Below are positions 33 to 22,791 of a stretch of DNA of 64,000 nucleotides, piece by piece. The stretch's first letter is position 1; the number at the start of each line of letters is the position of its first letter. The DNA is from Naegleria gruberi (lineage: Eukaryota), in assembly GCA_000004985.1 (NCBI GenBank), contig GG738871.1; one strand, 5' to 3'. The translations under genes were made by a program, and so were the position numbers. The notes under the pieces were generated by a model that did not search any database, was not told the DNA's origin, and saw nothing but the letters and a program-made list of their open reading frames with translations.

Positions 33-3000
33 TTGTTTTTCATTCAAAGTATTGTGTTAATAATACTTTTAACACAAACAACACCAGTTCTCTCATGGTC
101 CTATAGTATGAGAACTGTAGCTTCAGCACCAGATACTATTACTCAAATTGTTGGTGGTAATCAATTTATTTATGCTGCCTTTGGTTCTGATAATATTGTT
201 TATTATAACAGAAGTGATTCAACTCAAATTGATGTCGCTACCATGTTGGCTGCTACTAATACTAATGCTGGTTCTACTTTTAAATATGTCGCTTACCATG
301 GTCAAACTTCTGGAGGAAATGATATCATTTCTGCTGGTACTGTTAGTGGCATCTTTGATAGTGTTGGATTGTATTCATGCGCTATTGATTCACAGAACCT
401 TCCTGCCTCTTTGACGGCCTTTACTGGCACTTCTCCAACAAAATTATTTGGTGTGAGAGGAAAATCATCTAATTCTCCATCAGATCCTCAATTTTATCTC
501 ATGACAGATCAAGGAATTATTGAAGCTGATTCATCTAGTTCTTCGCCTGTTGGCTCTGCTTCATTTAGTACTCAAGTTGACTTGGATTTTAATTCTTCCA
601 TGGTAAGTTTATTTCTTCTAAAAACGTTGTGATAATCTAATACTTTGATAGATATTTTATTTGGATTCTTCTAGTAATCTTTGGTCGGGTTTGACTAGCA
701 GTACTAAAGTTATTGGCAGCGGACTTAATTTACCAAGATCTTTGAGCTTTGTTGATACTTTTAATCAAGTAAGTGATGAAATAGTACTCATTTCTCTAAT
801 TAAATTAGATTTTTATCTCTGATACTGGTAATGGTCGTGTTAAAGTTTTGGATCTATCCTCAAATCAAGTTACCACCATTGCCGGAGGTTCTTCAACTCT
901 TCCACCAAATGACTTTACACTTGTTAGCTCACCAACTAACTATCAAATTACTCCTACTGGTATTTGGGTTGACAAGTCAAATGGATACGTATACATTGCC
1001 GATGGAGCATACATAAGAGTTCTCACACCAACTTGTAACACCATTTCTGAGGATGCCTCTTCTTCATATCCTTTCTGTGTCTGCAAATCAGGCTATATTC
1101 TCCAAGATGGGGTTTGTGTTGTTAACAACTGTTTGACATGTAACTCAAATCAAACTTGCGTATCAAATGCCTGTGTCTGTAAAAATGGTTATTCTGGAGC
1201 TTTATGTTCTGAATACAAGTGTTTTGGTACCCCTAAAGATAATGTTGGAGTATGTAGTAGTAGAGGTTATTGTACTGCACCAGATAATTGTATCTGTACT
1301 GACTCTATGAAATACTCAGGCGCTTCATGTAATGTTACTACCTGTAATTCCATCCCATCCTATCAATCTAATGTTTGTTCTGGAAAAGGTCAATGTACTG
1401 ATTATAACTTGTGTGTATGTACCAACACAACTGAATACGGAGGAGTAAATTGTGAATATTTCAAATGTAATGGACTCAATTCAAATGATGGAAACGTATG
1501 CAGTAAGAACGGCACTTGTGTTGGAATTAATTCATGTTCATGCAATTCAAATTATGCTGGTAACAACTGCCAGTACCCTAAGTGTAACGGAATCCCATCA
1601 ACTGATACTAATAATGTTTGTAATAAGAATGGTACCTGTGTTGCTGTTGATACCTGCAACTGTAATGTTAATTACACTGGTCAATTCTGTCAATATCCAA
1701 AATGTAATGGTACAGCTTCAAACGATGCAAGTGTTTGTAACTCCAATGGTGTTTGTAGTGGTGTTAATAATTGTGTCTGTAATTCAAATTATACTGGCCA
1801 ATACTGTCAATTCCCTAAGTGTAACGGAATTGGCTCAAATGATATTAATGTTTGCTCAAAGAACGGTACCTGTGTTGCTGTTAATACTTGTAATTGTAAT
1901 GTTAATTATACTGGACCATATTGTCAGTATCCAAAATGTAATGGCACGGCTTCAAATGATATTAATGTGTGCAGTAAGAATGGTAATTGTATCGCTCCAA
2001 ATGTTTGTTCATGTAATTCAAGCTTTTCTGGCCAATTCTGTCAATATCCAAAATGTAATGGAATCCCATCAACTGATACTAATAATGTTTGTAATAAGAA
2101 TGGTACCTGTGTTGCTGTTGATACCTGCAACTGTAATGTTAATTACACAGGTCAATTCTGTCAATATCCAAAGTGTAATGGTACAGCTTCAAATGATATT
2201 AATGTGTGCAGTAAGAATGGTAATTGTATCGCTCCAAATGTTTGTTCATGTAATTCAAGCTACACTGGTCAATTCTGTCAATATCCAAAATGTAATGGCA
2301 TTCCATCAAACGATGCTAGTGTTTGTAATTCAAATGGTACCTGTATTGGTGTTAATACTTGTAATTGTAATGCTAATTATACTGGTCAATTCTGTCAATA
2401 TCCAAAATGTAATGGTACTAGCTTCTAATGATACTAATGTTTGCAGTAAGAAGGTGGTAATTGTATTGCACCAAATGTTTGTTCATGTAATTCAAGCTAC
2501 ACTGGACAATTCTGTCAATTCCCAAAGTGTAATGGTATTGGATCCAATGATGGAAGTGTTTGTAATGCAAATGGTACTTGTATTGGAATTAACATTTGTT
2601 CTTGCAATTCGAATTATGCTGGACAATTCTGTCAATATCCAAAATGTAATAGTATTGCTTCGAATAGTGGCAGTGTTTGTAATTCACAAGGATCATGTGT
2701 TGCACCAAATGTTTGTGTCTGTAATTCAAATTATACTGGCACTTATTGTGACAAACCAAGATGTGGCATCTATTATAAGGGTGATGCTTCTGCTTGTAAT
2801 TCGAGAGGTAGTTGTGATGCTGTTGATAGTTGTACTTGTAGTGATACATCTTCTTGGGGTGGCAATTTGTGTCAATATCCAAAATGTAATGCTGTTCTTT
2901 CAAATGTTGGAACTGTTTGTAGCAGTAGAGGAACTTGTCAATCTCCAAACAATTGTTCATGCACTGATCCAAGTTCATATGGTGGTTCATATTGTGAAAA

Positions 3001-5017
3001 AGCAAAATGTTATGGAATTCTTCAAGGAGATTCAAATGTTTGCAGTGGGCATGGTACTTGCAGTGGTGTGAATCAATGTTCATGCAGTGCTGGATATGGA
3101 GGTGAACAATGTCAATATCCAAAATGTTTCACTATTTTGAGTAATGAAACAACAGTTTGTAACAATAGAAACGGTACATGTACTGCACCTGATACTTGTT
3201 CATGTAACAACGGATGGACTGGAAGCAAGTGTGATGTTGCCATTTGTTTTTCAATTCTCTCCAATTCAACAAAGGTTTGTTCAAACAAGAGAGGTAGTTG
3301 TGTCACACCAGATAATTGTGTTTGTAAAAGTCAATATTCAGGTTCTCAATGTGAATATACCACTTGTTCTGGAATAAGATCAGATCAAACATCGACAGTA
3401 TGTTATGGAAATGGTCAATGTATTGATTATAATACTTGTAATTGTACAACTGGTTATGGACCATCCAATGTATGTCAATATCCAATTTGTGGTGGCTATT
3501 TGGCAAATGATACAAGAGTTTGTAACAATTCAAGAGGTGTATGTTTGAGACCAAATGAATGTAGACCATTAGATCCCGTATGTTATGGTAAAGCTCAGAA
3601 TAATTCAATGGTTTGTAGTGGACATGGTTCATGTATCGATTGGGATTATTGTGAATGTAAAACTGGTTTCAATGGAAATGAATGTCAAAATTGGGAATGT
3701 TATGGAAAGAATTATACCAACTCAAATGTTTGTAACAATGGAAATGGTACCTGCTCATCTGTGAATAATTGTGTTTGTAACAGTGGATGGTATGGAAATG
3801 AATGTACAGTTCCAATGTGTAATGGAATTCTTGCAAATTCATCCCTAGTTTGTAACAATGGAAATGGTACCTGCTCCAAACCAGGTGCATGCCAATGTAA
3901 TACTGGATACACAGGATCTGACTGTTCCATTCCAATTTGTTATGGCAAATTAGGCACTGATACAAGTAATGTTTGTTCAGGAAGAGCAGACTGTATTGGT
4001 TATAACAAGTGTAATTGTGACACTTCCAAGTATAGTGGTTCACAATGTGAATATTTCAAATGTTTTGGTATTCCGTCAAATGATGCTTCAGTTTGCAGCA
4101 GAAACGGAACATGTTCAGGTGTGAATCAATGTTCTTGTAATTATGGTTATGGTTCTTCAAATTGTGACATTTTCACATGTTCAAATGTTCTTGCCACCAA
4201 TTCAAGTGTTTGCAGTGGAAAGGGTGTATGTTATGGAATTGACAAGTGTTCATGTGATTCAGGATATTTTGGATCAAATTGTGAAATTATCTCCTGTTAT
4301 GGAATTCCAAAGTCCAACAATACTGTATGTGGTGGAGTTGGTGAATGTTCACAACTTGATACATGTGTTTGTGGAAGCGGTTATAGAGGCTCAATGTGTG
4401 AATTATCTTACACCTCTTCATCTCAAGCAACACTTCAATTCAACAATACGAATGAATATGTGAATGAACAATTCACAAGCATGGTCACTTTGACAATTAA
4501 TAATCCACTCTTCGGCCAATATTATTTGAGAAGAAGTGTTCAAGTTGTTGTTTCATTTGAAATTAATTCACAATTCAGTTATTCTGAAACACTTTATATT
4601 GAAAATGGAGTTTCATCTGTTTCATTAATGGTGAAATCGTTGAGTCAAACTGGTACATTGAAAGCATCTGCTCAATTAATTGATAATAGCACATTGATTT
4701 CCATTTCAGATAGTATTCAATCTTCAAATAGCATTACAATTCAAAATAGACCTATTGTTGTTCCATCTACAAAGACATCCACAACCAAACCAACAACCTC
4801 TGCACAAACAAGTAGAGCTGTTATCGATACAGGAAGTAATGCAGGAGCCATTGCAGCTGGTGTTATTGTTCCAGTGGCAGTTATTGGAATTGGAGGTGGT
4901 GTCACTGCAGCCATTGTCACAGCAGTTGTTTTATTAAAGAAGAAGGCTGCTGCAGCTGCTGCCGCAGAAATTTCCCATGCTCAACACGTCAATGTTGAAC
5001 TTGTTGAAGGTTTCTAA
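33..5017 (+). CDS. Giant secreted/type-I membrane cysteine-rich EGF-like repeat protein (~1630 aa); exons 33..602, 652..768, 809..5017
   Basis: N-terminal hydrophobic signal (MFFIQSIVLIILLTQTTPVLS). GTAAGT donors at 603 and 769 with TAG acceptors ending 651 and 808; the reading frame is preserved across both. The protein contains more than 45 tandem modules of type CxYPKCNG..CS..G.C..CxCN..Y(T/S)G..C. It ends with a Thr/Pro stalk (TKTSTTKPTTSAQTS), a TM helix (AIAAGVIVPVAVIGIGGGVTAAIVTAVVLL) and a short cytoplasmic tail. A local out-of-frame stretch lies at ~2419–2456 (see findings). Confidence 0.6.
1440..2760 (+). repeat. Tandem near-identical coding DNA repeats (~240/480-bp units) encoding EGF-like modules
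   Basis: Near-identical ~100-nt segments recur at ~1570–1680 vs ~2050–2160, and at ~1930–2030 vs ~2170–2270 (e.g. ccaaaatgtaatggaatcccatcaactgatactaataatgtttgtaataagaatggtacctgtgttgctgttgatacctgcaactgtaatgttaattacac). Confidence 0.6.
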
Positions 5018-5398: not shown

Positions 5399-7037
5399 AT
5401 GGTTTCGTCTACTAAGCAATTAACTATTGTTCTGACATTATTGTTTGCTTTTGCAATCATTAACATTTCACATGCTGCTGTTTATCAAGTGAAAGATGCT
5501 GTTACTTTGTGGAGTACTTTTGGTAAGCTCCAAGCTGGTAAGTTTCTAATAACAATGTTTGAATCAAATTAACAACCTCTTTGCATGTAATCGTGTCCGT
5601 TGGCATGTCAAAAACCTATTCGAAACTTGAATAGGTGACGAAATGATCATTAGACAAGGAACCTATTCCACATCCACAGGTGGATCTTACTATAGACAAT
5701 TCACATTGAGAGGTACATCCGCATTACCAATCAAAGTTTATGCTTGGAAAAACGAAACTGTCGAAATTAAGGGAGACGCAGCTGCCAGTCAAAATATTCT
5801 AAACTTTGATGTTGAATATTTTGTCATGGATAATCTTGGTTTCTCTCAAGGAAGTCGTGGTTTAAGATTTTTAAATTCGAAACATTCAGTTTATTCGAAT
5901 CTGAGAGTTAAAAACACTGGTGATGTTGGTATCTCCATGAATGATGGAAATGCGCTTTATCAAAACAATACATTCAGATATAATGAAGTTTCGTATACTA
6001 GAGGAACTGGTGAATGTTTCTATTTGGGTTGTAATAATGCTGGATGCAAGTTTATTTTCAATTTATTGGAAAATAACTATTGTCATCACACAAGCACTGC
6101 AGCCCAAGGAGATGGTATTGAAATCAAGACTGGAAGTTATGGAAATGTTGTTCGAAACAATGTCATTCATGATGGAAACTATCCTGGTATTACCTTATAT
6201 AGTACTTATTACAATGGTGTAGATAAGGATATTGGCATTGCTAATCCAAATATTATTGAAGGAAATATCATTTGGACTGTCAAAGACAATGGCATACAAG
6301 TGACAGGTAATGCCATTATAAGAAATAACATTATTTACAATGCAGGTGCAAGTGGAATTGCCATTCAAACCAATCAAGGAATTGTCGAAAATGTCAAAGT
6401 ATTGCACAATACAGTTGTCAAAGCAGGTGCTGCTTGTATTAGAGTGACAAATTCAGGTCCAGGAATTTTGATTGCAAATAATGCTGCCTATTGTGAAACA
6501 ACAAGTTCCGTTTATATTGCCTCAGCATTGCCTGCTGATGGAATTATCTCAAGAAATGTCATTCAGGGCTCGACTAATGTTCAAGTTGTGAATGGAACTC
6601 TCAATATTGGTAAATTCACAACTGATTTCCAAGGGAGTAGCGCCTTGCCATATAATGTGTTCCCAGTTGTTTCCAGTAATGTGCTTGGAAAGGCAGATTC
6701 AAAGTATGCTACCACTTATGATTTCAATTTTAATACTAGAAATGGGCCAACTTATGATTGTGGTGCTTATCAAGCTAATGGAGCTACTTCAAATCCTGGT
6801 TGGATTCCAACAACTGGTTTTAAGAATACTAATGCTCCAACTCCAGTCAATCCTGTAACTCCTGGTGCTTCAAAGACTCCAACTCCAGTCAATCCAGGCA
6901 CTTCAAAGACAACACCAACCAATCCAGCAAATAGTCCAACTGCAGTTAATTCAAACAAGAGAGTTAACAATGCGAATGTTTTGATGCAAAGTATTGCTGC
7001 CATGATTGTTGGTTTGCTTGTATTCATTGCTATTTAA
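5399..7037 (+). CDS. Secreted right-handed parallel beta-helix (pectin-lyase-fold-like) repeat protein with Pro/Thr linker and C-terminal hydrophobic GPI-like tail; exons 5399..5537, 5635..7037
   Basis: Signal peptide MVSSTKQLTIVLTLLFAFAIINISHA. Intron 5538..5634 (GTAAGT...ATAG), frame preserved. Repeated beta-helix-like motifs (NNVIHDGN, IEGNIIWT, IRNNIIYNAG, ISRNVIQG). PT-rich stretch (PTPVNPVTPGASKTPTPVNPGTSKTTPTNP). Terminal hydrophobic VLMQSIAAMIVGLLVFIAI. Confidence 0.55.
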
Positions 7038-9750: not shown

Positions 9751-10854
9751 TTATTTACTATCGCTCGATGATAATTGTTGTTGTTGGTCCAATGAACACT
9801 TTGGCTTCATAGTAAAATAGATACCATAGTGATCACTGCAAAACAAGTAATCTTTGGTGATGAAAGATAACCTCTGACTTTCCTCCTCCGAGAACAATAG
9901 CTTATTCTTCAATAACTTCTTGATGGAATTAGTTGCAAATAATCGTATAGCAGTGCAGGAGAGCTTAGATTCTGATGTTTTCCATTGTACTACTCGATCC
10001 AAACGTAATTGTTTATCAGCATCGGCAGCACTCATCTTTCCTAACATTGGATTTGTCTTACCATCCATTGTGTATCCCTTGTCTCCATTTGCTGTATGAA
10101 TATCAATCCACAAATCAGAAAATTCCTTAATGTGAGTAATGAAATTGGTCTCAAATGGCATATTCAAGTTAAAATCTCCCAGATAGATCAGCTCATTACA
10201 TGTATTCTTAGTGAGTTGCTTGGCTAGTTCATATAATTCTGCAACTTGCTTCTTTCTCACTTCAAAACATTCCTTCTTGGCTTTCAAGTGAACTGATCCG
10301 AAACAAATTCTAACACATTCTTCTTCTGATGTCTTGTAATCAGCAATTGAAAGAATGACCCTTCTGGAAAAGTTACTTGGGTAAGCAAACTTGTATTTGA
10401 GAAATCTGACATTGGTAAATTTGTGTTTCGATAACATGATCAAATTACCATAGGGAAAGACTGTAGAATGGCCAGAATCCTTCTTCTCACCCACTTCAAT
10501 TTCCGATAAGTAATAGTGATCTCTGACCCATTTCTCACTCATTAGTTTTGCAAGATATTGTGGAGTCATTTCACACAGAGTCAAGACATCCAATTGAAGT
10601 TTTTCCAACATTCTGATTTGAACACTGTATCGAATATCACTATACACAATATTATTCTGATAAATATCAAACAAGACATTAAAAGCAGCACACTTTAGCT
10701 CCTCGGAATTATATGTTACACTAGTATTGCTCCAATCCTTCTTTTCGTCCCATGTACTTGTCAATTCGTCATAGAAATACGCTGGTATAAATCTGAGATC
10801 GGTCTTTTCTGGTAATGTTATTTCATCCACCTTCTTATTATTTTCAGTAGACAT
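9751..10854 (-). CDS. Endonuclease/exonuclease/phosphatase (EEP) family protein, TDP2-like
   Basis: 367-aa ORF with EEP signature blocks: LQLDVLTLCEMT (Mg-binding E), YLGDFN (GDFN motif) and C-terminal SDHYGIYF (SDH motif). Confidence 0.5.
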   Translation of the reverse strand: MSTENNKKVDEITLPEKTDLRFIPAYFYDELTSTWDEKKDWSNTSVTYNSEELKCAAFNVLFDIYQNNIVYSDIRYSVQIRMLEKLQLDVLTLCEMTPQYLAKLMSEKWVRDHYYLSEIEVGEKKDSGHSTVFPYGNLIMLSKHKFTNVRFLKYKFAYPSNFSRRVILSIADYKTSEEECVRICFGSVHLKAKKECFEVRKKQVAELYELAKQLTKNTCNELIYLGDFNLNMPFETNFITHIKEFSDLWIDIHTANGDKGYTMDGKTNPMLGKMSAADADKQLRLDRVVQWKTSESKLSCTAIRLFATNSIKKLLKNKLLFSEEESQRLSFITKDYLFCSDHYGIYFTMKPKCSLDQQQQLSSSDSK

Positions 10855-11364
10855 CTTTTTCCAATCCTCTCACTAAAATAATGACTATTATTGATACACA
10901 ATTAAAAGTACTATTGAACTTTGATGTAATTTTTTGTGTTATTTTTATATTTGTTGTTCTTGGGTGAGATGAATTTTGAATGTTGTTTTTAAATTCAAAT
11001 TCAAATTTGATTTTCTTTCTTCTTGGTGCAACCTGTTATCTTTCTAAAGGAACTGCTGATTAATTATTATATTGAATTTTTGTACTTGTCTATAATATTT
11101 CATCATAATATTAGGAATATTATTTGTAGTCTTTTAAATAAAGGCTTGGCTGATGATTCTTGTTTGGTTTATTCTTCATTCTATTTTCTTCCAAACGATC
11201 CTTGATTAATATAAAGCCAATAACCACTCCGAAAAGGAGAGTACCCCTCATCCAACGATTGTGAGTAGAAATTTCATTACGCAAATCAGTCATTTTTTAA
11301 TAATTTGAATTTTAATTGTTTTTTAATATTTTACATGTGAATTGTTGATTTATAAATTTCAAGA

Positions 11365-14300
11365 CTAATTGGAAACTGAGAGTAATTGTTGACGAGAAGT
11401 GTTCATTTGGGAAAGAGTGCTAGAATTGAGCGAATGGGATTGATTGAGGAGTGATTCAATACTGAACATGCTCTTTCTCTTTTCTGCATTGTTTCGATTG
11501 AGAGATTCGTTTGTTTGATTCCAATTCTTATTGATTGGTTGTGTTGAAGCATTGATTGGACTCATGTGCTCCCAGTGGTTAATGAATTTCTTAGAAAATT
11601 GATTAAATTCATCAGAGTTTGCATTTTGAGAGAGACCCTTCATGAGCGATTCAACATTCTTATTAGAAAGATCATTAAATTGCAACATTTCTATTGATTC
11701 CTTTTCCACTCTCAAAGACTCTACTCTATGTTCAGTAAATATAAATTTTACGAGTTGCTTTCTAACTCCTTCATACAGAGCCGATAAGTAAACCAAAGCA
11801 AATACTATATTCTCCAATGAATTATTCAACTCTTGAATCTTGGAGAGATTTTTCTTCTTTTCTCCTTTCAATAATCTTCTTTCATCAATAAGATCCACAA
11901 CCTTGCTCTTTACAATTGGTATCAACTTATTCTCCATTGCAATAGCAATGACATCCTTATATCTTTTCGAAAGTATCATCTTCTTCAATGAGGAAATGGT
12001 GCTAGCTGGCTCACTTCTCAACTTTTCATAAATTTTACTCAAAGATCTCAGACACTGACAGCAATAATAGGCAGATCTGAATTCAATCTGTGAAATCCAA
12101 ATTTTGATCAACTCGGTTAAATGTTTTTGATTATACGAAAAGAATGGAATGACATTCTGCATCAAAGTTACAAAATCATTCACTCTCATCGAGTTCTTAT
12201 CAAAGTTTTGAATAATATGAATTAAATCTGTTGTAATCTTGTTGTAAAAATCTGGATTCAAAAGGAGAGAAATATTGTTATTCTTAATATTGTGAACAAT
12301 AGTCTTGGTAATGGTTGTAATCTTGGAGCTGGAAACAATTTCACTTGTTTGGAATTTCAGAAATTGATAACTATATGGATCTGAAATCATGGTTGAAAGA
12401 ATTTCCATATAAGTATTTGTGAAAATTTCTGTAATATTCTTCATATCGACTGATGAATTTGTTTCAATTAATTCATCTAATTGTCTAATTTGACGAACCA
12501 AACATTTGAAAAAGTTCCAAAAGTATTCTTCGTGTGAAAGATAGCCACAAGCTTGCTTATCCTTCTTTACACATGTCAATATTGTCATGAGAGCCAATTG
12601 TTCTAATTCGATCATGTCAGCATTTCTTAAATCCTTCAAATTGACTTCCTTTCCTTGTCTTTCTGAATGAATTCTTACCATCATTTCACACAACATGTTC
12701 AGCAAACCTTCTTCTCTTATAATTTTCACAATTTCTTCTTTTTGTCTCGAGTAGACACATGTGAAATTCAACATCTTTACCGATTCAAGAATGATTAGAA
12801 TTGGATCGATTGGTTTTCCATTTCTTTCCAATACGAAAGAGAGAACATTCTTTTCATCTTTTAAAAATGTGAACCAATAATCAGCAATGAATGAAACTAA
12901 ATCTTTGATTTGCTTTCCTCTCACCTCTAGAACATGTCTGTTGTTGTAATCTGAAATTTGCTCTGATAAACTTTGGAATAATCTCTTCAATGTTGGATTG
13001 GAAATAATTTCTCTTGATTTGGAGAATGTGGAAAAATCAGGTTTCAAATTTTCCAAATTAAGGAAGTTAACAACTTTAATTTGTTTCTTGCTCATCAACT
13101 TCTTCGAGAAACTACTATCATTCTTATTGTTTTTATCTCTATAATCAATTGAATCATGATCCTTATCAAATGAAAAGTTAGTTGAGCAATCAGAGCTTCT
13201 ATATTTGGTTAAATATTCTCTTGTGCTCATAAATGAATCTTCCACGAGCCTGTACTGTTTCACAGAGATTGGATCCATCATTTTCGAATTTACATGTGCG
13301 AAAGAACTCAATCCATAACAAGCTGCATGATAAAGCATCTCACGAGGGGGAATTTCGAATGTGAAATCTTCATCCTCCATGTTATCAACATTGATATCCA
13401 TTTCGAGAATGTTAATGGATGGATCAGAGAAGATATCTTCATCAAGGGTGGGGTTGTTGAGGTAATCGAATTCTTCATCCATTGAGGAATCTTGAAGTTT
13501 AGTTGCATCAATGGAAGCAGAAATGATATCAAACATGGAAACAACTCTATTCGAAAAGACATCTTCGAAAGTGTCAGTAACAAAGTGAAGCTTTCTATTG
13601 AATTCATTCCTTTCGTGGGCGTTCAACGTGGTCAAAATCTGCAGAATTGTTTCGTCTGTCAAATAGACGAAATTGTCTCCCTTTACAATATCCCAAATAT
13701 CACAACCATTCTTTTGTAATTCTTGTTGATCTTCTATTTTCATCTTGTAACCATACTTATCATCTCCAGTGTAAAGATTAATCAACATTGGAAAACCAGT
13801 TTGTTTCAATTGACTCAAACATTGATTGAAAACTGTGTTTGAAGTTTTCTTTTCAATGCCAAATGTCATGCAGTGGATAAAGTATGATCTAGAAATGTAG
13901 CGAGATGTTAATTGTTCAAAGAGAGTGTCTTCAAAGCTTTCTAATGCATTAGGTAAATAATCTTCACCGAATTGTTGGACGAAATCTCCCAAAAGTAAAG
14001 TAAGGACTTTTGAGGTCGTTTTCATCATATCACAAGTGGAGGAAACCATTTCAAGGGGAGTCGAAACAAACATTGAATCGTCATATGTTTTGAAAGCGTT
14101 AACACTTTCGTATACTTTCATCACTTGTTCCACCATTTGAACTTGATCCAAACTCAACAAATCCTTAATGAGAATCATTTCATTCTGAGCATTAGATTGG
14201 ATAGCAATCATATTAAACAACTCTACAAATTGATCTGAAAGATTGTCAGCCTCTGTTTGAGTTGGAAGATCAAAAACAACAATTTCCTTAATTTGGGAAC

Positions 14301-15982
14301 TGGTGTTTTCACATCTTCTTCTCCAGTTGAGTAAAATTGTTTGGATTTGAAGATTGATTCTCTCTTCAATGAATGAAATAACGGATCCATACAGTAAATC
14401 AAAGATAAAGTGAACTTGTTGTTGGGAATAGAACAGCGATCTACACTGGTCAACTGGTAAATCTAAAAGGTACGATACAATTTCAAGGTATGATCGTTAT
14501 CTTCGGATAGGATATCTGTAAAATCAAAGTTATAAATCCACATGCATGCAGATAGAACTCTATAAATGGAATCAGATTCTTGGGATGAAATCCCAAATTT
14601 GGAAAAGTAATCTTTCATTTTCTTAACATCCATTTTCAAAAAATTCAAGTCTTTATAGTTGACTTGATGTTTCTGAAACATTTTGTAAGTTTTCAAATCA
14701 TCCGAAATGAAATGATTCTCCTTTCCATATTCAGATTCACCAGCATTAATCATGAGAAGAAAGATGTGATACAAGGGTGGGTTTCTCTCTATCTGTAACC
14801 CCTCTCCACACAGAGTTCCCTCTCTAAATATGGATTTAATAGAGAGTGAGTGAATTCTATTATCCTGATCACATTTCATTGTAACAGTTCTCATGTGAGT
14901 TTGTGTGAGAGCTTTCTGATAGAGAATATTCGAAAATATGAGTAAAATGTTGAGAGCTGGACCGACTGTAGATATAATACTGTCCATATATTGCTCTTGT
15001 TGACTTCCTTGATTGGAAGAGTGATAGGGAAGTAGTTTCTTATTTAACAATGTCATGACTACTTGTTGTAATGTTACTTGTTTTTCCTTTGAACCTTCAC
15101 CCAATAATACTATACATTGTTGGTTAATACCATTACTTAATTGAGTATGAAGATAATTTACAACATCTTGACCGTTATTTACAATAGCTGAGGCTTGTTT
15201 CTTGTTGATGAATGTCACATCTGGATTTTTGAGAAGGATATTTCTCTTACCAAAATGCATCTAATGTTGATGTGAAATGTATTGTTATTGTGTTATTCTA
15301 ATGATAGGAGTGATAAAATACTTACTGTGAAAATTTGTGAAGATCTCAATTGATCCATGAATGACTTATTTACAAAATTTGTCCAATTGGCTACAACTTG
15401 CGCCAGGGAATGACAGCCAGGACTGGCCCACATGAGATTCTCCCTCTCCAGGTTGTTCAAGGCTGGAGCATCGACTGGATAACACTTGGATGGATCGACT
15501 TGAATCTCCTGTCCCCCAAGAATTTCATTACTTGAAATGTTTCTCTCGTTGATAATGACCTGGACGTTCTTGACCTGTCTAACCACTTGTGCCAAGTACA
15601 GTTTATCCTTGATTTCAACCCAAACCAATTCGTCTTTCTTGAACATTTTTCTGGTAGGTTCTTTATAAGTTATCTGAGGTGCAGAGCTTGTGCTTGATAC
15701 TGGAAAGTTTGGTATCAGAGCTGTGATTGGAAGAAAGCTTGGCGAGAAGAGGAAATCATCATTGAATGCAGCAGTGGTTGGAGCTACTTGTTCACCACTT
15801 GATGTTGAACTTGTAGTGGAGTGAAGCGATGATGTATCATCTGATTGATTATCATCTTCATATCTATTCTCTAGGAGAGTGATAAATTTTGGAGTGCTCG
15901 GTGGAGAAGGAACTTTAGATGAATGATGCATGTTCTTCATTGGGTCTCTCAACTCAATGATTGATTCTTGATTCGATAACAT
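11365..15982 (-). CDS. Highly divergent myosin-like protein with degenerate nucleotide-binding motifs (pseudo-motor); exons 15326..15982 and 11365..15260, with an apparent 1-nt homopolymer frameshift near 14465–14468
   Basis: The exon-1 ORF (15293..15982) has a myosin N-terminal SH3-like region (KKDELVWVEIKDK..VQVIINER..QVDPSKCYP). A GTAAGT..TTAG intron (15261..15325) joins in frame to ORF 14463..15260. The P-loop is NQQCIVLLGEGSKEKQV (vs NQSxLITGESGAGKT) and ERNPPLYHIFLLMINAGESE matches ERNYHIFYQL. Switch I is degenerate (CDQDNRIHS vs NSSRFGKFI). The HYGNxxF block is CMWIYNFDF. Switch II is degenerate in the 3' part (IVVFDLPTQTEADNLSDQFVELF vs IGVLDIAGFEIFxxNSFEQLCIN). The ORF continues 951 aa to 11365. 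Confidence 0.55.
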
Positions 15983-17607
15983 TCAAGAATATACTAGTAT
16001 TCTATTTTGCAACGTTTTTTGAAATGTTCAATGAGAAAAATCGTTAGGTCAAATTTGATATGGAGACTTTCAGTTGTTTTTTTAAAGAAAACTTTCATGA
16101 GACTGAACCAGATTGGTGTAAGTTATGGAAAAAACGTTACGGATTGAAAACAATAACGGTTAGAATCTGAATTTGCAATTGCGATGAATAAGGGAGTTAG
16201 GAGGAGTGAAGTTGCTAGAGTCGCAAAGAAAAGAGAATCATTTTGATGTCCCTGCCAAGCTGTCTGGCATGTCCTTAATAAAGGAATTTCCTAAATAAAA
16301 TTTCTGTTAGTGGCTTAACGAATTAAAATTCTATCTATAAGGAATCGTAGACACTGGGATAATTGTGAGAAGTTGCGAAAGTGAGCATAATTAAGATTAT
16401 TTTGTAAGGTATCAGTACGATTTCCCTTATGAATACCTTGGACAATGCTCACAAATCTAGTTAAGCCATCTCAAAACAATTAAATTGGTATCTTCTGCCT
16501 TTGTGAATTTAATAACTGATAGATTCTTCTCTCCACTTTGGTTTGACTGTAAAGTAGTATTTATATAGATGTATGTACAATAGGATAGACCTATTATATC
16601 TTACAAGGTGATCACTATTCGGTTTAAATAATGTCATTCTGTTGTCGTGTTATTTATTTAAACATAGACGCCTGTCCATAACAATGTGAAAAAGAGGCCA
16701 AGTCCTAAAATGATCGAAGAGGAGGCAGCCAATGTAATTTCCTTGAAGAAACTTCTGTGTTGCTTTGTTGTAGTTGTTTCATAACTGTTATTTGTGATGG
16801 AAATTCCAAAATCATCATAATCAGCATTATCCAATAGTAATTCATCATCAACAATTATTTTAACACGTAAATTTGATAATCAATAATTTCCACACCAGAT
16901 AATTCCACAATGTGTGATGATTAAATACAAATCCAAATTTCGCAAATAGTTATACAAGCAAAATTAATAATTTGTCGAATTAATTTATATTGAATTGTAT
17001 CCACAAAGTGATCATCGTCAATTTTTCATCATCAAAACAAAATATAATTAATAATTTTATATACCTCCGGAATCTAGATCCCTCATCAACTTACACCAAA
17101 AATAAAGCCATCAATACAAAACCAATAGATGAGAGAACAACAGCCAAGGTTGGGTAGCTGTTTGGATCAACAGGGCTGTGATATTGAAGATTGGAGGACA
17201 TTTTATTCTTGTTGTTGGATCAAGCAACAATTCCTCTGCTGAAAAAAACTCGCAAAGATTCTTCCCGCTCTTTGGTAGTTTTAATAAGTATTCTTCAGGC
17301 TTTGATTTAAGCTTGTGGAGTTGAGAGAGATTTTGGCTTACGTTCAAACGAATAATGAAACTAAGAATTCAATAGATATCAAGGAGAATTGATGAAAGGA
17401 AATAGGAGTTGTGTTTCATTATTAATTGAAATAGGAATCTAAATGGAATGTTCAAAAGAAGGAACTGAATTGGATTGTTTTAATAATGGTCAATTTTAAG
17501 TTAATGACAACCCCAGCAAATCAATAATCTAATATCACTCAATTCAGCATGCTGGTTTCTAATTTGAAATTATTAAACTATTTATTGAAATTTAAATTGA
17601 ACTATTT

Positions 17608-19038
17608 CTAAAGTGAAGGCATTTGTTGACTGATACAGTGCATTCCTCCTCCACCCATGTTAATAGCTTCAGTTGAAATTGCAACAATTACATGATTTGG
17701 ATATACTCGCTTAAATATTTGAAGAGCTTCTTCATCAGAATCTTTAACGTGTTGGGGAAGACCTTCACGATAATATTTGGAGATGAGAACAGTATTATTA
17801 CTCACTAAGAAATTCAAATAACTCGAGGCAATAATGTACTTGTAAGTTTGGTCATCATGCATAACAAGTCCATCTTCAAATTCCAATTCCTGTAATGTAT
17901 CGAAACAGGAGTCACCCTTCTTGAGATCCATAACAATGTGTGGTCCAACTGGAACTTTGATAATTTCGAATGGTTCTCCTTTGAGATTGGTTTGCTTTTT
18001 GAGGAGTTCATAGTTTTGCTCGAGTCTCTTTCTATTCTCAACAGAGATACAATCATTCAAGTGAACTGGTACATAGGCAAGGAGAATGGTATTCTCAGTG
18101 GCAAATCTAGCCCACTCGTCAATGTGTCCTCCAGTACCATAAGATGCCAATAATTCAGTGCCTGGAATGAGTCCTCGATATGAGCATTGATCTTCAACAA
18201 GACCCTCAGTTTCCAACCAGATGATCTTTTCAGCACTTTTACCAAAAACTCTCTTCATTTCATGCTCGATTTGTTCTCTATTTTCAATATTGTTATCCTT
18301 ATTTCTTTGCATTTCAACATGTTCGACCATCATCATGACACCATTTCCATTGTACTCTCTGTCACCACCTTCACTGATGAGGTGAGAACGTACAACTGGA
18401 ATATTTAACTTGTTAGCAACCTTCTATCAANNNNNNNNNNNNNNNNNNNNNNNNNNNNNNNNNNNNNNNNNNNNNNNNNNACGAAATTGGACCATTATCT
18501 CTCATCCACACATCCAAATGTTCGATAATATGATATCTCATTCTCTTTTCAATCAATTCAACAGAAATATTATTTCTTTGTTTTAAAAACTTTTCCACAT
18601 TCATCTTATCTTCCTCTTCATGAATAATCAAATCAATATAAAACTCTGATCCATTCACATTATTATTCAAGAGCAAAGCTTCCATCATTGGAAGTCTATC
18701 ATTCATTAATTCACAAAGAATTCACAACATGATCACTTACTGCACTTGATGGAAAGGACTATATCTGATTGGTTCTTCTGGACAAACCTTGAATGCAAAT
18801 TCATAATTATTCTCCTTTGTGGTTGGGCCTAATTAAAGTGTAAAGTTAGTGTCATTCGGAAGTTGATGATCACTTACCAAGAGCCATCCAAATACTTTCG
18901 TGATGTTCAAATTCACCTATTTTCATAATAGAATTCATTTGTTTCATCATGGAATGTCCACCAAACAGAAAAAAACAATTAAATCTATCGACACATTGAA
19001 AATGTTTGTGGAAACGTACCTGGGAAAACGAAGGACAT
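17608..19038 (-). CDS. Agmatine deiminase (porphyromonas-type peptidyl-arginine deiminase family); >=5 exons, spans an N gap
   Basis: Exons (minus): 19020..19038 (MSFVFP), 18878..18916 (GEFEHHESIWMAL, the PAEWEPHxxxW hallmark), 18741..18828, and 18695 downward to the gap. DVWMRDNGPI lies before the gap. After the gap: GTGGHIDEWARF ... and C-terminal NMGGGGMHCISQQMPSL (catalytic Cys motif). Introns 18917..19019, 18829..18877 and 18696..18740 are all GT..AG. Confidence 0.7.
18431..18480. other. Assembly gap (50 N)
   Basis: Run of n characters inside the agmatine deiminase coding region. Confidence 0.99.
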
Positions 19039-19502
19039 TTTTTTGAAATTGTTTAAACTCCTGTTGTGAATCCTTGGGAGGATAACACTCCGTTAATGTA
19101 TGCACTCTCAGAGTTGATATAATTTAATAAATACTTATTGCCAATTTTGTTTTGAGTAAACAATTCAAAATGTTACAATTTCTCTTAACATTAGACTAAT
19201 CTGTTCTACTGATTCTAATCAGGTGAAGAACCTTTATGTTTCAGGTGCAGAACTTTCTCAATACAATCAACTATTTCGAATACCATCGAATGTATGTCAA
19301 TATCGAATGTGAAAAATGCAAAATGATCTCAAACAAACACCTCCAGCCTGATTATTCCATTAGTTTTTCTTTCCACTTACACAAAGGATCACCAAGGGTT
19401 GATCTATTAGTTTTCTTCTTTTAAAGGTTGTTATCAATTTCCAAAGTCCGTCCGTTCTCCATTCTGTGTGGCGAGGTTTTTTAAGATTTTGCCTTAAAAA
19501 AA

Positions 19503-21008
19503 ATGAACAATTCAAAATCTTCAATGATTTCATTCGGGGCAGCAATTGTCTCGATGATAGCAGTCACATTGATGATGCTATCAATAGCCTCTGCCTTCTC
19601 GGTAAAGAGTGATATCGATTATCGTACAGTATTGTCTGATTATGTGAAGGGAAATAATCAATACTTTAAATATCAATTGAAGGGTACTTATGATAATGAT
19701 TATGGAAAATTCATAATCTTCAACATGACCAGTGTAAAGTGGTTGGATGAGAAGGAGCTTGGGAATAGCTGCTATTGGTTCCACTTGGTCGAAATTGCCA
19801 TTCCAAAGAAGATTAAGCAACAATCAAATGTGTTGATGTTGGTTGCTGGTGGATCTCAAAAGGAGATTGCACCAACAAGTGATAATGAATTAATGAAAAT
19901 GGCTGCCAGTACTCAATCTATTGTTGCATCTATTCATCAAATTCCAAATCAACCTTTGGTTTTCAATTCTGATCCAACAAGACAACAAAGAATTGAAGAT
20001 GAAATTCTTGCCTATGCTTGGGCAAAATTCATGCAAAACACAACTCAAACTGGGTGGATTCCAAGATTACCTATGGTTAAGGCAACCATGTTGGCAATGG
20101 ATGTTGTTCAAGAATATTTGAGAACTACCTTATCAATTAATGTAATGAATTTCCATGTTGCAGGAGCAAGTAAGAGAGGTTGGACCACTAATTTGGTAGG
20201 TGTTGTTGATAAGAGAGTTAGAAGTATCATGCCAATCGTTATTCCAGTAATGAAAACTAGAGATATTCTTGGTAAGTTAACAAAACTATATTAGTTAATG
20301 ACCCTATTGTAAAATATAGAACATTCTTACAATTCGCTTTGCACATGGCCAGAAGCAATGGGTGATTATGTTAAAGAAGGTATCACTACAAAATTAAACT
20401 CTAAAGAATTCCATCAACTGACAACAGTTATAGATCCTTTCGAATATAATGATATTTTGGCAACAATCAACAAGTATTTCATTTATGCCACTGGTGATCA
20501 ATTCTTCCTTTGCGATCTTAGTCAATTCTCTTATCCATACCTTAAGGGAGGTGACCAACTCAAACATTTAAGATATGTTCCAAATACTGATCACTCTTTG
20601 GATGGATCTGATGCCCAAGTTTCTGCTTTAGCTTATTACTTTAGTTTGGCCAACAAGCTTCCACTTCCAGTTTACAATTTTACAGCAGTTTCTGATAGGA
20701 CTGGCGTTTCTGTTGGTGTCAAGGTAATGAGCCCGATTCCACCATCTGCTGTCCTGTTGTGGGAAGCTCGTGCTCCACAAAGAGATTTCAGACTTCAAAC
20801 CATTGGAAAAGCATGGAAACCAAGACCACTCCAATTGTCTAAAGATGGTAGTGTTTCAGTTCACCTGGATAATCCAGCCACTGGCTATTATGCTGCCTTT
20901 GTTGAATTAACATTTGATTATTTAGGAACACAAATTCCTCTCAAGTTTACAACATCAGTTTATGTTCTTCCTGATATTTTGCCATGTAAATACCATAATA
21001 AAGTTTAA
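19503..21008 (+). CDS. PhoPQ-activated pathogenicity-related protein family member, secreted; exons 19503..20271, 20320..21008
   Basis: Signal peptide MNNSKSSMISFGAAIVSMIAVTLMMLSIASA. Phase-1 intron 20272..20319 (GTAAGT...ATATAG). Family-like blocks (WFHLVEIAIPK, VLMLVAGGS, WIPRLPMVKATMLAMDVVQEY, HVAGASKRGWTT). Total ~485 aa. Confidence 0.6.
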
Positions 21009-21195
21009 GATGTGAATAAGTTTGATGTAAATCTAGCAATCTGCTGATCGGCCAGTAAGAAAATGATGACAGATTTCAAATAGGAATATATTACAATTCT
21101 TCCAGTATTATAATCTCACAATTATAATCTCAACGACAAAAACATTCTCCATTAAATGTCAAAAATCATTAACAGAAAACTCACTTATTAAAAAA

Positions 21196-21726
21196 ATGCA
21201 TAGCTCCAAACTCATTATTGCTGTCTTATTGATGGTTATTGCCTCATGTGTTGTCGTTTCTTCTAGATCTCTCCCATACAGAGGACAAAGCATTGTTGAC
21301 TTTATTAACTCTCTCCAACTCGATGAGGAAAATGAAGAACTCGCTGACACCTTCTCTTTTGATTCAGGTGATGATATTGCTAGTGAAGCTATTAGAAGAT
21401 ATGGACGTGTTGCTACTGCAGGTGGTCATTGTGCTCGTGCTGTTAGAGAATCTATTGAAGGTGCTTTGGACATTTCCTTGCAAAGAACTGAAAGTGCTAA
21501 GAATTATGGACCTTCCTTGTTGGCTGCTGGTTTCCAAGTTGTTTCTGGACCTGCTCAAGATGGTGATGTTGCCATTTTCCAAGCTATCCCAAACCATCCT
21601 CATGGCCACATTCAAATCAAAACACCAATTGGTTGGGTTTCTGATTTCAAGCAAAGAGATCAATATCCAGGTCCAAGCTACAGAAGTATCAGTGCTCCAT
21701 TCAAATTGTACAGATATACTGATTAA
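21196..21726 (+). CDS. Small secreted CHAP-like (cysteine/histidine-dependent amidohydrolase/peptidase) domain protein
   Basis: Signal peptide MHSSKLIIAVLLMVIASCVVVSS. Candidate catalytic Cys in ATAGGHCARAVRESIEG and downstream GDVAIFQAIPNHPHGHIQI, matching the CHAP/NlpC-P60 pattern C..AV...G...GD(I/V)..F....HGH(V/I). Confidence 0.5.
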   Translation: MHSSKLIIAVLLMVIASCVVVSSRSLPYRGQSIVDFINSLQLDEENEELADTFSFDSGDDIASEAIRRYGRVATAGGHCARAVRESIEGALDISLQRTESAKNYGPSLLAAGFQVVSGPAQDGDVAIFQAIPNHPHGHIQIKTPIGWVSDFKQRDQYPGPSYRSISAPFKLYRYTD

Positions 21727-21866: not shown

Positions 21867-22791
21867 CTATTCATCATCATCTGACAAGTCGACAGCAGCA
21901 CTCTCAGTCTTTTTTCTCTTTTCTTCTTCTTGTCTCTTAATTTCCTTTCTGATTTTGAAAGTAAGGGATGGGCTTTCCACAAGGTCTGCTTCAGTAATTC
22001 TTGATTCCCTACAACCAATAATAGGACATTCGAAAAATCCCCCTCCAGTTCTCAATTTTTGGAAAGCCACTGTCTTTTCGTATACGTGTTTACATTTCTT
22101 TGATTGAATAGGTTCTTGTAAATTAGAACCAGTCCATGGACATGTTGTTTTAATAGTAACTTGTGACAATTGAATATCATCATCATCGTCACCTTCCTGG
22201 TTCCAATCCAATTCTGCTGTTGGGTCGTGCACTTGCATGATAGAGAGTTTGAAATTTTGGTATTCCTCCACTTTCTTGATTGACTGATCATCATATTCCT
22301 TCTCAGTATTTGTTTTGATATTATTATCATAAAATTGTGACACTGTTCTTAAATCCTATTCAATTAATAATAATTTAGATAATAAATATTGTTGTTAATT
22401 ATTGATTAAATTGTTATTAAATTCTACTACGTACAATTCCAGGAGATTCCAATATTTGTTGAAGTGTAGCCGTATGACCTTTTGTCATTCGGAGTAAATC
22501 CAAATAATCCCTAACAATAGAATCAATTTGTTCAACTTGTATTTTGTTACGTTCATATTCGGGATCGTCAGGCAAAGATGATCCTTCAATATCTTTTGCC
22601 AGCGTTGTCAATAATTCTATATTTTCCAGCATGGTTGTAGTATTTTCATTGTGTGCTTTTTGCAAGGGTTTAATTTCCAACTGCACAAGCCTAAATGCGC
22701 CTCCTTGATGTTGACTTGAAGACATTTTTTGTGTGATGGAAATTAATTCTTCTTTAATTTTTAGGAAAAATTTTTGAAAATTTAGCGCCAA
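21867..22791 (-). CDS. NSE2: SMC5/6-complex SUMO ligase NSE2/MMS21-like (SP-RING); exons 22435..22791 and 21867..22355
   Basis: Intron 22356..22434 (GTACGT...AATAG) joins the two ORFs in frame (…ESPGI|DLRTVSQFYDN…). C-terminal SP-RING pattern CPWTGSNLQEPIQSKKCKHVYEKTVAFQKL....FECPIIGC. Acidic tail. Stop is TAG. Confidence 0.5.

Follow-up and report, generated by a model that had tools for sequence, protein, structure and literature searches.

Background

Tae3 (type VI secretion amidase effector 3) is an interbacterial toxin of bacteria that cuts the meso-diaminopimelate-D-alanine (mDAP-D-Ala) cross-link of peptidoglycan. Genes of the tae type have been acquired several times by eukaryotes, in which they are called dae (domesticated amidase effector) genes, and the Dae4 protein of Nematostella is bactericidal (PMC8713801); dae2 of ticks, which is derived from tae2, encodes a protein with a signal peptide that kills bacteria (bioRxiv 10.1101/2020.04.10.036376). 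A 2012 survey of polymorphic toxins found that other toxin domains and immunity domains have been transferred to Naegleria. The present analysis concerns a 64,000-nucleotide stretch of Naegleria gruberi DNA (contig GG738871.1; the whole stretch is called the window), in which three genes stand side by side at positions 17608-21726: a gene of the PAD_porph or agmatine deiminase family on the minus strand (G1), a gene of the PhoPQ_related family on the plus strand (G2), and a small plus-strand gene whose product is a homologue of Tae3 (G3). The founding dae paper, by Chou and colleagues in 2015, reportedly listed protist dae3 genes, and G3 may be among them. Full-text searches of the literature on Naegleria or horizontal gene transfer that deals with dae or tae genes, amidase effectors, agmatine deiminase or PhoPQ brought up no paper in which any of the three genes is named.

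The three are probably independent, long-resident genes, each derived from a separate old bacterial transfer, that became neighbours only in the lineage of N. gruberi. A first-pass annotation, made from the sequence of the window, had described them as an agmatine deiminase, a secreted PhoPQ-activated pathogenicity-related family protein and a small secreted CHAP-like amidase, had considered all three to be resident in the host genome, and had suggested that their co-location could reflect either a single acquisition event or a preferred integration region.

Gene order in N. gruberi and its relatives

All three genes are present and intact in the order and on the strands that the first-pass annotation gave them. 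G1 and G2 are transcribed divergently from an intergenic region of 464 bp (19039..19502), and G2 and G3 are in tandem on the same strand with a spacer of 187 bp. The window is AT-rich, with about 35% G+C overall and about 30-38% throughout. The G+C content at third codon positions (GC3) of the three genes is 0.25-0.32, inside the range of 0.18-0.38 of the other long, apparently coding open reading frames (ORFs) of the window. The Pfam families of the flanking ORFs are eukaryotic: Ost5, a region resembling a myosin head, Zn_clus, DDT, EGF/teneurin repeats and, in the gene that comes next after G3 on its downstream side (21867-22343), an Nse2-type zinc finger. Canonical introns are found in G1 and G2, and signal-peptide-like N-termini can be recognized by eye in G2 and G3, so that each of the three genes has introns, a signal-peptide-like N-terminus or both, as had been claimed. 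An 8.7-kb segment of the window (9754-18423), which spans G1 and its downstream neighbours (Ost5 and two large genes among them), is collinear with a segment of the Naegleria lovaniensis genome (L001 10701-19953). A run of 50 N that marks an assembly gap lies within G1 (18431..18480) and hides approximately 37 codons and part of the fourth intron. Because the two halves of G1 on either side of the gap align to consecutive parts of the same orthologue, the scaffold has been joined correctly, and G2 and G3 lie on the same contiguous DNA as the 5' exons of G1.

Collinearity with N. lovaniensis does not extend beyond the 5' end of G1, the break falling in the intergenic region between G1 and G2. 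In N. lovaniensis the upstream neighbour of the G1 orthologue is an RWP-RK gene, and no part of the window from 19000 to 64000 matches the 10 kb upstream of that orthologue. The G1 orthologue of Willaertia sits among unrelated genes. The Tae3-like gene of N. lovaniensis has an ankyrin gene on one side and a CID gene on the other, and the Tae3-like copies of Naegleria fowleri are located between GH31 and adh_short genes; in neither species is there a flanking gene in common with the window. In one metagenome sample that contains a Naegleria-like organism, the closest homologue of G3 and a homologue of G2 are carried by separate contigs and do not share their neighbours. No two of the three families were found together in 10 eukaryotic loci, among them those of N. 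lovaniensis, N. fowleri, Willaertia magna and the Naegleria-like metagenome contigs, and no homologue of G1 or G2 was found in any of 38 bacterial Tae3 loci (up to 6 kb on either side). A search for repeats or traces of mobile elements around the block of three genes yielded short chance matches only. These comparisons with related genomes, in which no linkage of the trio was seen in the loci examined of N. lovaniensis, N. fowleri and W. magna alike, indicate that the trio is a juxtaposition specific to N. gruberi of genes with separate histories.

Bacterial affinities of the three genes

If Heterolobosea and a few uncultured eukaryotes are set aside, the best matches of all three genes are bacterial, which bears out the predominantly bacterial families proposed for them. 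Each gene has its own set of named bacterial relatives: Synechococcus and Acidobacteriota for G1, Planctomycetota and Verrucomicrobiota for G2, and Ralstonia, Paraburkholderia, Corallococcus and Planctomycetes for G3. Orthologues of G1 in N. lovaniensis, N. fowleri and Willaertia are 52-60% identical by BLASTP (57-67% in the alignment), and are followed by bacterial proteins of at most 40% identity. In the G1 tree, the heterolobosean sequences group together (bootstrap 0.99) within a clade of 44 sequences (bootstrap 1.0) that includes Synechococcus elongatus and a sequence of Acidobacteriota, and to which the flavobacterial and deltaproteobacterial sequences do not belong; the agmatine deiminase of plants is far less closely related (E=2.8e-18). 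The best match of G2 is a protein of N. fowleri (52% identity), followed by a Naegleria-like metagenomic protein (50%) and a long list of proteins with 36-41% identity, of which the named members belong to Pirellulales, Gemmataceae, Verrucomicrobiota, Acidobacteriota and Bacteroidota. The Naegleria clade of G2 (bootstrap 1.0) lies among sequences whose named members are bacteria of the PVC (Planctomycetes-Verrucomicrobia-Chlamydiae) group.

A bacterial origin is likely for G1 and G2, which may have been transferred before Naegleria arose. The strongest case of the three is G3, for which a bacterial origin is highly likely, because its family is overwhelmingly bacterial, exists in bacteria as effector-immunity pairs, and occurs patchily in eukaryotes. 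The recipient of these transfers would have been an ancestor of Naegleria or, in the case of G1, an ancestor of Naegleria and Willaertia.

Alternative explanations

The assembly gap inside the three-gene block could be a sign of bacterial contamination or of a misassembled scaffold, but the probability of either is negligible: the gap lies within a single gene, both halves of which are consecutive on the same orthologues, spliceosomal introns interrupt G1 and G2, the G+C content and GC3 are those of the host, and eukaryotic genes flank the block on both sides. With the join in G1 validated, contamination and misassembly were ruled out, and all three genes are residents of the host genome, as the first-pass annotation had it. 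The immediate adjacency of the genes with their short spacers, the membership of all three in mainly bacterial families, the synteny break at the edge of the G2-G3 block, which is compatible with insertion or rearrangement, and the presence of a Beta_helix/NosD ORF 11 kb away would fit the co-transfer of a single bacterial fragment or a hotspot for integration of foreign DNA. Such an event is nevertheless very improbable, considering that the N. lovaniensis counterpart of G1 lies in a block of conserved gene order with neither G2 nor G3 beside it and that of Willaertia has a different context, that the Tae3-like genes of N. fowleri, N. lovaniensis and the Naegleria-like metagenome have unrelated neighbours, that the PhoPQ gene found in that metagenome is carried by another contig, and that the 38 bacterial Tae3 loci are devoid of G1 and G2 homologues. 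The differences among the named bacterial relatives of the three genes, the fully host-like composition and the lack of flanking repeats or mobile-element remnants also speak against it. Neither the single acquisition event nor the preferred integration region of the first-pass annotation is therefore retained. It is also highly doubtful that G2 and G3 are kept together as a functional pair acting jointly on bacterial envelopes, in which an esterase would remove a modification and an endopeptidase would cut cross-links. Both proteins have signal-peptide-like N-termini, their genes are in tandem on one strand only 187 bp apart, and G2 has an esterase-like fold while G3 is a peptidoglycan amidase homologue, but the linkage of G2 and G3 is not conserved in any relative examined. 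If there were such a newly assembled, co-expressed, secreted antibacterial pair, with G2 loosening an envelope component so that G3 could then reach and cut peptidoglycan, it would be an instance of rearrangement uniting domesticated bacterial genes in a functional eukaryotic mini-cluster.

Separate bacterial transfers have also to be weighed against vertical eukaryotic ancestry of G1, G2 or both, with widespread loss, such that old genes were kept in amoeboid lineages. The immediate sisters of the Naegleria clades (P0279 for G1 and P0182 for G2) are encoded on contigs with Rad51, Arf/Ras and WD40 neighbours and are probably from uncultured eukaryotes, and proteins of the PhoPQ_related family have been annotated in the Amoebozoa Cavenderia and Neoparamoeba (PMC8202022), so that an older eukaryotic ancestry, or spread from eukaryote to eukaryote, is possible for G1 and G2. 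Plants, too, possess the agmatine deiminase family (PDB 1vkp), and G1 is kept across Naegleria and Willaertia. The trees of G1 and G2 were made by neighbour-joining with 100 bootstrap replicates from the top matches only, most of which are unnamed sequences. The tree of the Tae3 domain has essentially no resolution (bootstrap 0.09 for the clade that joins the Naegleria paralogues), the domain being too short for a tree to resolve the ancestry of these paralogues; the AlphaFold model of G3 is of moderate quality (mean pLDDT, or predicted local distance difference test, of 64; about 80 in the domain); and signal peptides were judged by sequence inspection rather than by a predictor. Most of these points count against the account of three separate bacterial transfers. 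Vertical ancestry is still unlikely: among the best 120 matches of the G1 or G2 search there is no other named eukaryote and there are many bacteria at 35-41% identity, the plant enzyme is far more distant from G1 than its bacterial relatives are, and the heterolobosean G1 clade is embedded in a fully supported clade with bacterial members. Separate old transfers of three genes that later became neighbours thus remain the preferred account of the locus.

The Tae3-type amidase homologue

G3 (21196..21726, plus strand) is a single-exon gene for a protein of 176 amino acids, to which a public predicted protein of N. gruberi is 100% identical. By inspection it has a signal-peptide-like N-terminus, MHSSK-LIIAVLLMVIASCVVVSS/R, with a hydrophobic stretch and a small-residue cleavage motif, whereas bacterial Tae3 proteins have no such N-terminus. 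A profile made from the five closest sequences, four of them from named Naegleria species and one metagenomic, matched a single solved structure, PDB 4hz9_A (E=3e-33, residues 18-117 of 119). Likewise, the best Foldseek matches of the G3 model were 4hz9 and 4hzb, the Tae3-Tai3 effector-immunity complex of Ralstonia pickettii (E=8e-10, template modelling score on the target of 0.76-0.80, 46-49% identity), and structures of CHAP and NlpC/P60 proteins (such as 5d76 and 6bim) and of Tae4 matched the model weakly. Cys79, His138 and Asp150 of G3 align with Cys23, His81 and Asp93 of Tae3, and the cysteine and histidine are invariant in all three alignments (A1-A3). G3 is thus a predicted secreted papain-like peptidoglycan amidase homologue of the Tae3 family. 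As the first-pass annotation proposed, it would be a small secreted amidase, but its description as CHAP-like has to be given up: the match to Pfam CHAP (PF05257) has an E value of 0.057 and a score of 14.4 bits, below the cut-off of 26, and membership of that family was rejected. A bona fide bacterial Tae3 homologue also falls below the CHAP cut-off (21.4 bits).

An exhaustive profile search identified 1,744 members of the G3 family at E<=1e-3; the matches of a word-indexed search were limited to four proteins of Naegleria and a metagenomic one closely related to them, and bacterial relatives emerged only from the profile searches and a scan of genomes. When one genome per bacterial species was scanned with a four-sequence alignment, 38 loci with relatives of G3 were found, with identities of up to 55-57%, in Ralstonia, Paraburkholderia, Pseudomonas, Enterobacter, Massilia, Acetobacteraceae, Planctomycetes, Acidobacteria and Corallococcus, among others. 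In the two bacterial loci that were inspected for it, those of Ralstonia and Enterobacter, the tae3-like gene is immediately followed by a gene of the DUF3828 family, which we take to be the Tai3 immunity family. No homologue of DUF3828 is encoded in the 64,000-nucleotide window. Its absence is expected of a domesticated eukaryotic copy, and excludes a type VI secretion system effector but not a protein of the dae type. By its sequence, G3 is a eukaryotic copy of a bacterial interbacterial toxin that stands alone, of the dae3 type and without an immunity partner. By analogy with Tae3 in bacteria and Dae2 in ticks, G3 would be secreted or routed to phagosomes, where it would cut the peptide cross-links of the peptidoglycan of ingested or competing bacteria.

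Other Tae3-like proteins of eukaryotes

The genome of N. gruberi encodes at least two further paralogues of G3 (P0015 and P0153, the latter of 321 amino acids), and one Tae3-like protein was found in N. lovaniensis (P0010). Three Tae3-like sequences were returned from N. fowleri, two of which map to duplicated loci on different contigs. In these two loci (L003 and L004) the duplicated block consists of GH31, Tae3-like and adh_short genes and lies near contig ends (within about 3-45 kb); an integrase (rve) gene is present at L003 19689-20627, and the N-termini annotated for the N. fowleri Tae3-like proteins resemble exons that were called wrongly.

A short motif, DF[IV][SN][SLM][LS], directly follows the signal peptide in four of 153 family matches, all of them full-length Naegleria proteins: G3 (residues 32-40, at about 21289-21315 of the window), P0010, P0015 and P0153, in which its forms are SIVDFINSL, SLSDFISLS and MLSDFISMS. 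This motif may be a eukaryote-specific pro-peptide or sorting element, and that the paralogues share it hints at their descent from one domesticated ancestor.

Beyond Naegleria, the green alga Chlamydomonas incerta possesses a member of the Tae3 family (P0013) that has 120 amino acids and no N-terminal extension. It is farther from G3 than Tae3 of Ralstonia is (distance 0.92 versus 0.69), which suggests that the gene of C. incerta was acquired separately. Many of the best metagenomic matches of G3 carry signal peptides and low-complexity linkers, features that suggest further protist copies. The closest homologue of G3 outside the named species, which is metagenomic, consists of two in-frame matches with a gap of approximately 34 nucleotides between them (L043 1695-2139 and L044 884-1328); the gap probably represents a very small intron. 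The protein predicted from this homologue (P0008, 158 amino acids) was cut short by gene calling in the prokaryotic style.

The PAD_porph family gene

G1 was modelled on the minus strand as a series of exons by translation and alignment with its orthologues. Exon 1 (19038-19020) encodes MSFVFP and matches N. lovaniensis L001 10048-10257; exon 2 (18916-18878) encodes GEFEHHESIWMALG, the conserved N-terminal motif of the family; and exon 3 (18828-18741) encodes a short N-terminal insertion shared by the N. lovaniensis, N. fowleri and Willaertia orthologues and missing from the bacterial relatives. Exon 4 is partial (18695-18481), ending in the motif DVWMRDNGPI where it runs into the assembly gap. 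The last exon (18423-17608), of 271 codons and a stop codon, contains the catalytic motifs GTGGHIDE and GGGGMHCI and is 67% identical to its counterpart at L001 10701-11531. The three complete introns (103, 49 and 45 nucleotides) begin with GTACGT or GTAAGT and end with TAG, and a fourth acceptor, TTGATAG, directly follows the run of 50 N, so that G1 has at least four GT-AG introns. The orthologue of W. magna (L046 8001-9281) is intronless, which suggests either intron gain in Naegleria or intron loss in Willaertia.

The G1 model is collinear from Met1 to the stop codon with the orthologues of N. lovaniensis (440 amino acids), N. fowleri (443) and W. magna (426), and lacks only the approximately 37 residues of the gap, a block (FVVN...AVDR) that can be seen in the orthologue alignment. 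The public N. gruberi protein (P0275) consists only of the 242-amino-acid ORF on the 3' side of the gap, and the public annotation of G1 is thus truncated. The motifs WMRDNGP, GTGGHIDE and GGGGMHCI are invariant in the orthologue alignment, as are D115, H220, D222 and C383.

Of the label of agmatine deiminase, the family assignment stands, as G1 passes the cut-off of Pfam PAD_porph (PF04371; E=4.3e-46, 158.1 bits against 25), and the more exact assignment to the aguA equivalog does not: the scores against the NCBIfam agmatine deiminase models are 96.9 bits for TIGR03380, where the cut-off is 381.8, and 105.1 for NF010070, where it is 483. The residues lost to the gap cannot account for this shortfall, and because of it agmatine deiminase is to be understood as a family-level label. 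With the N. lovaniensis orthologue as query, the characterised agmatine deiminases are distant (E=1e-24 to 1e-18). Inspection of the N-terminus of G1 revealed no signal peptide. G1 may be a cytosolic guanidino-group hydrolase that deiminates agmatine or a related compound; the agmatine route would feed putrescine synthesis.

The PhoPQ_related hydrolase

Exon 1 of G2 (19503..20271, plus strand) encodes a putative signal peptide and the N-terminal part of a PhoPQ_related alpha/beta hydrolase, including the sequence G-A-S223-K-R-G-W. It is followed by a phase 1 intron of 48 nucleotides (20272..20319, GTAAGT...ATATAG) and by exon 2 (20320..21008), which encodes the rest of the hydrolase, with the invariant residues D316 and H348, and a C-terminal beta-rich domain. 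The spliced product has 485 amino acids. Its N-terminus is signal-peptide-like by inspection (MNNSKSS-MISFGAAIVSMIAVTLMMLSIASA/F), and it matches the Pfam PhoPQ_related profile (PF10142) over the full length (1-367 of 367; E=2e-98, 329.9 bits against a cut-off of 20.3), in agreement with the first-pass description of a secreted member of this family. No NCBIfam model names G2 or G3. A search of 5.8 billion proteins, in which an identical sequence would rank first, returned no N. gruberi protein among the matches of G2; the gene therefore seems to be unannotated.

S223, D316 and H348 are invariant in 121 sequences of the G2 family, and may be inferred to form the catalytic triad. No solved structure is related to G2 by sequence. 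The N. fowleri orthologue was modelled with a pLDDT of 91.9 as an alpha/beta hydrolase followed by a beta-rich domain, and the nearest solved folds (approximately 13% identity) are those of acetyl-xylan esterases and cephalosporin deacetylase, feruloyl and glucuronoyl esterases, and DPP-IV. The best-supported reading of this model is that G2 is a secreted serine esterase or peptidase; as an alpha/beta serine hydrolase outside the cell, it would act on some ester or peptide.

Other features of the window

An ORF at 5631-7034 on the plus strand encodes right-handed beta-helix (NosD) domains (E=2.9e-17), a family that is common in bacteria; in N. lovaniensis, a gene with PH and Beta_helix domains is located near the G1 orthologue (L001 731-2447). 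Two long ORFs on the plus strand at 809-5014 encode EGF and teneurin-like EGF repeats, and also match a repeat-rich gene of N. lovaniensis (L002 18124-19395).

Comparison with known systems

The locus is a concrete case of a known theme, namely that bacterivorous protists keep genes of bacterial origin, former interbacterial toxins included, which probably serve to digest or fight bacteria. The three genes are ordinary members of this known phenomenon, now better defined: G3 is reassigned from the CHAP family to the Tae3 type, the gene model of G1 is repaired, and G2 is added as an apparently unannotated PhoPQ_related gene. Finding bacterial-type genes next to each other in a single genome is no evidence that they were transferred together, and in this instance the adjacency disappeared once sister species were compared.

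G1 resembles the agmatine deiminases (AguA, and AIH of plants, the protein of PDB 1vkp) in keeping the motifs WxRDxGP, GGHxDE and GGGxxHC and in its match to PF04371. It differs from them in belonging to a longer subfamily of about 440 amino acids, below the aguA equivalog cut-offs and with low similarity to the characterised enzymes. G2 matches the PhoPQ-activated pathogenicity-related family, which is named after PqaA of Salmonella, over its full length and with the serine, aspartate and histidine that are kept in its homologues; in contrast to that family, G2 is a eukaryotic gene with an intron and a putative signal peptide, and regulation by PhoPQ is meaningless in an amoeba.

G3 has in common with CHAP and NlpC/P60 hydrolases, among them the NlpC/P60 enzymes that Trichomonas vaginalis acquired laterally (PDB 6bim), a papain-like Cys-His amidase fold, but Tae3 is a family separate from CHAP; both G3 and the bacterial Tae3 homologue have low CHAP scores. 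The closest described protein is Tae3 of R. pickettii (4hz9/4hzb), to which G3 is similar over the whole catalytic domain, with the same fold and an aligned cysteine, histidine and aspartate. Whereas the tae3 loci of Ralstonia and Enterobacter have an adjacent DUF3828 immunity gene, G3 has none, and unlike Tae3 it has an additional acidic N-terminal region of approximately 55 residues, the short motif of which is common to the Naegleria paralogues only. In these respects G3 corresponds to the dae genes of other eukaryotes: it stands alone, without a secretion apparatus, and begins with what appears by eye to be an N-terminal signal sequence.

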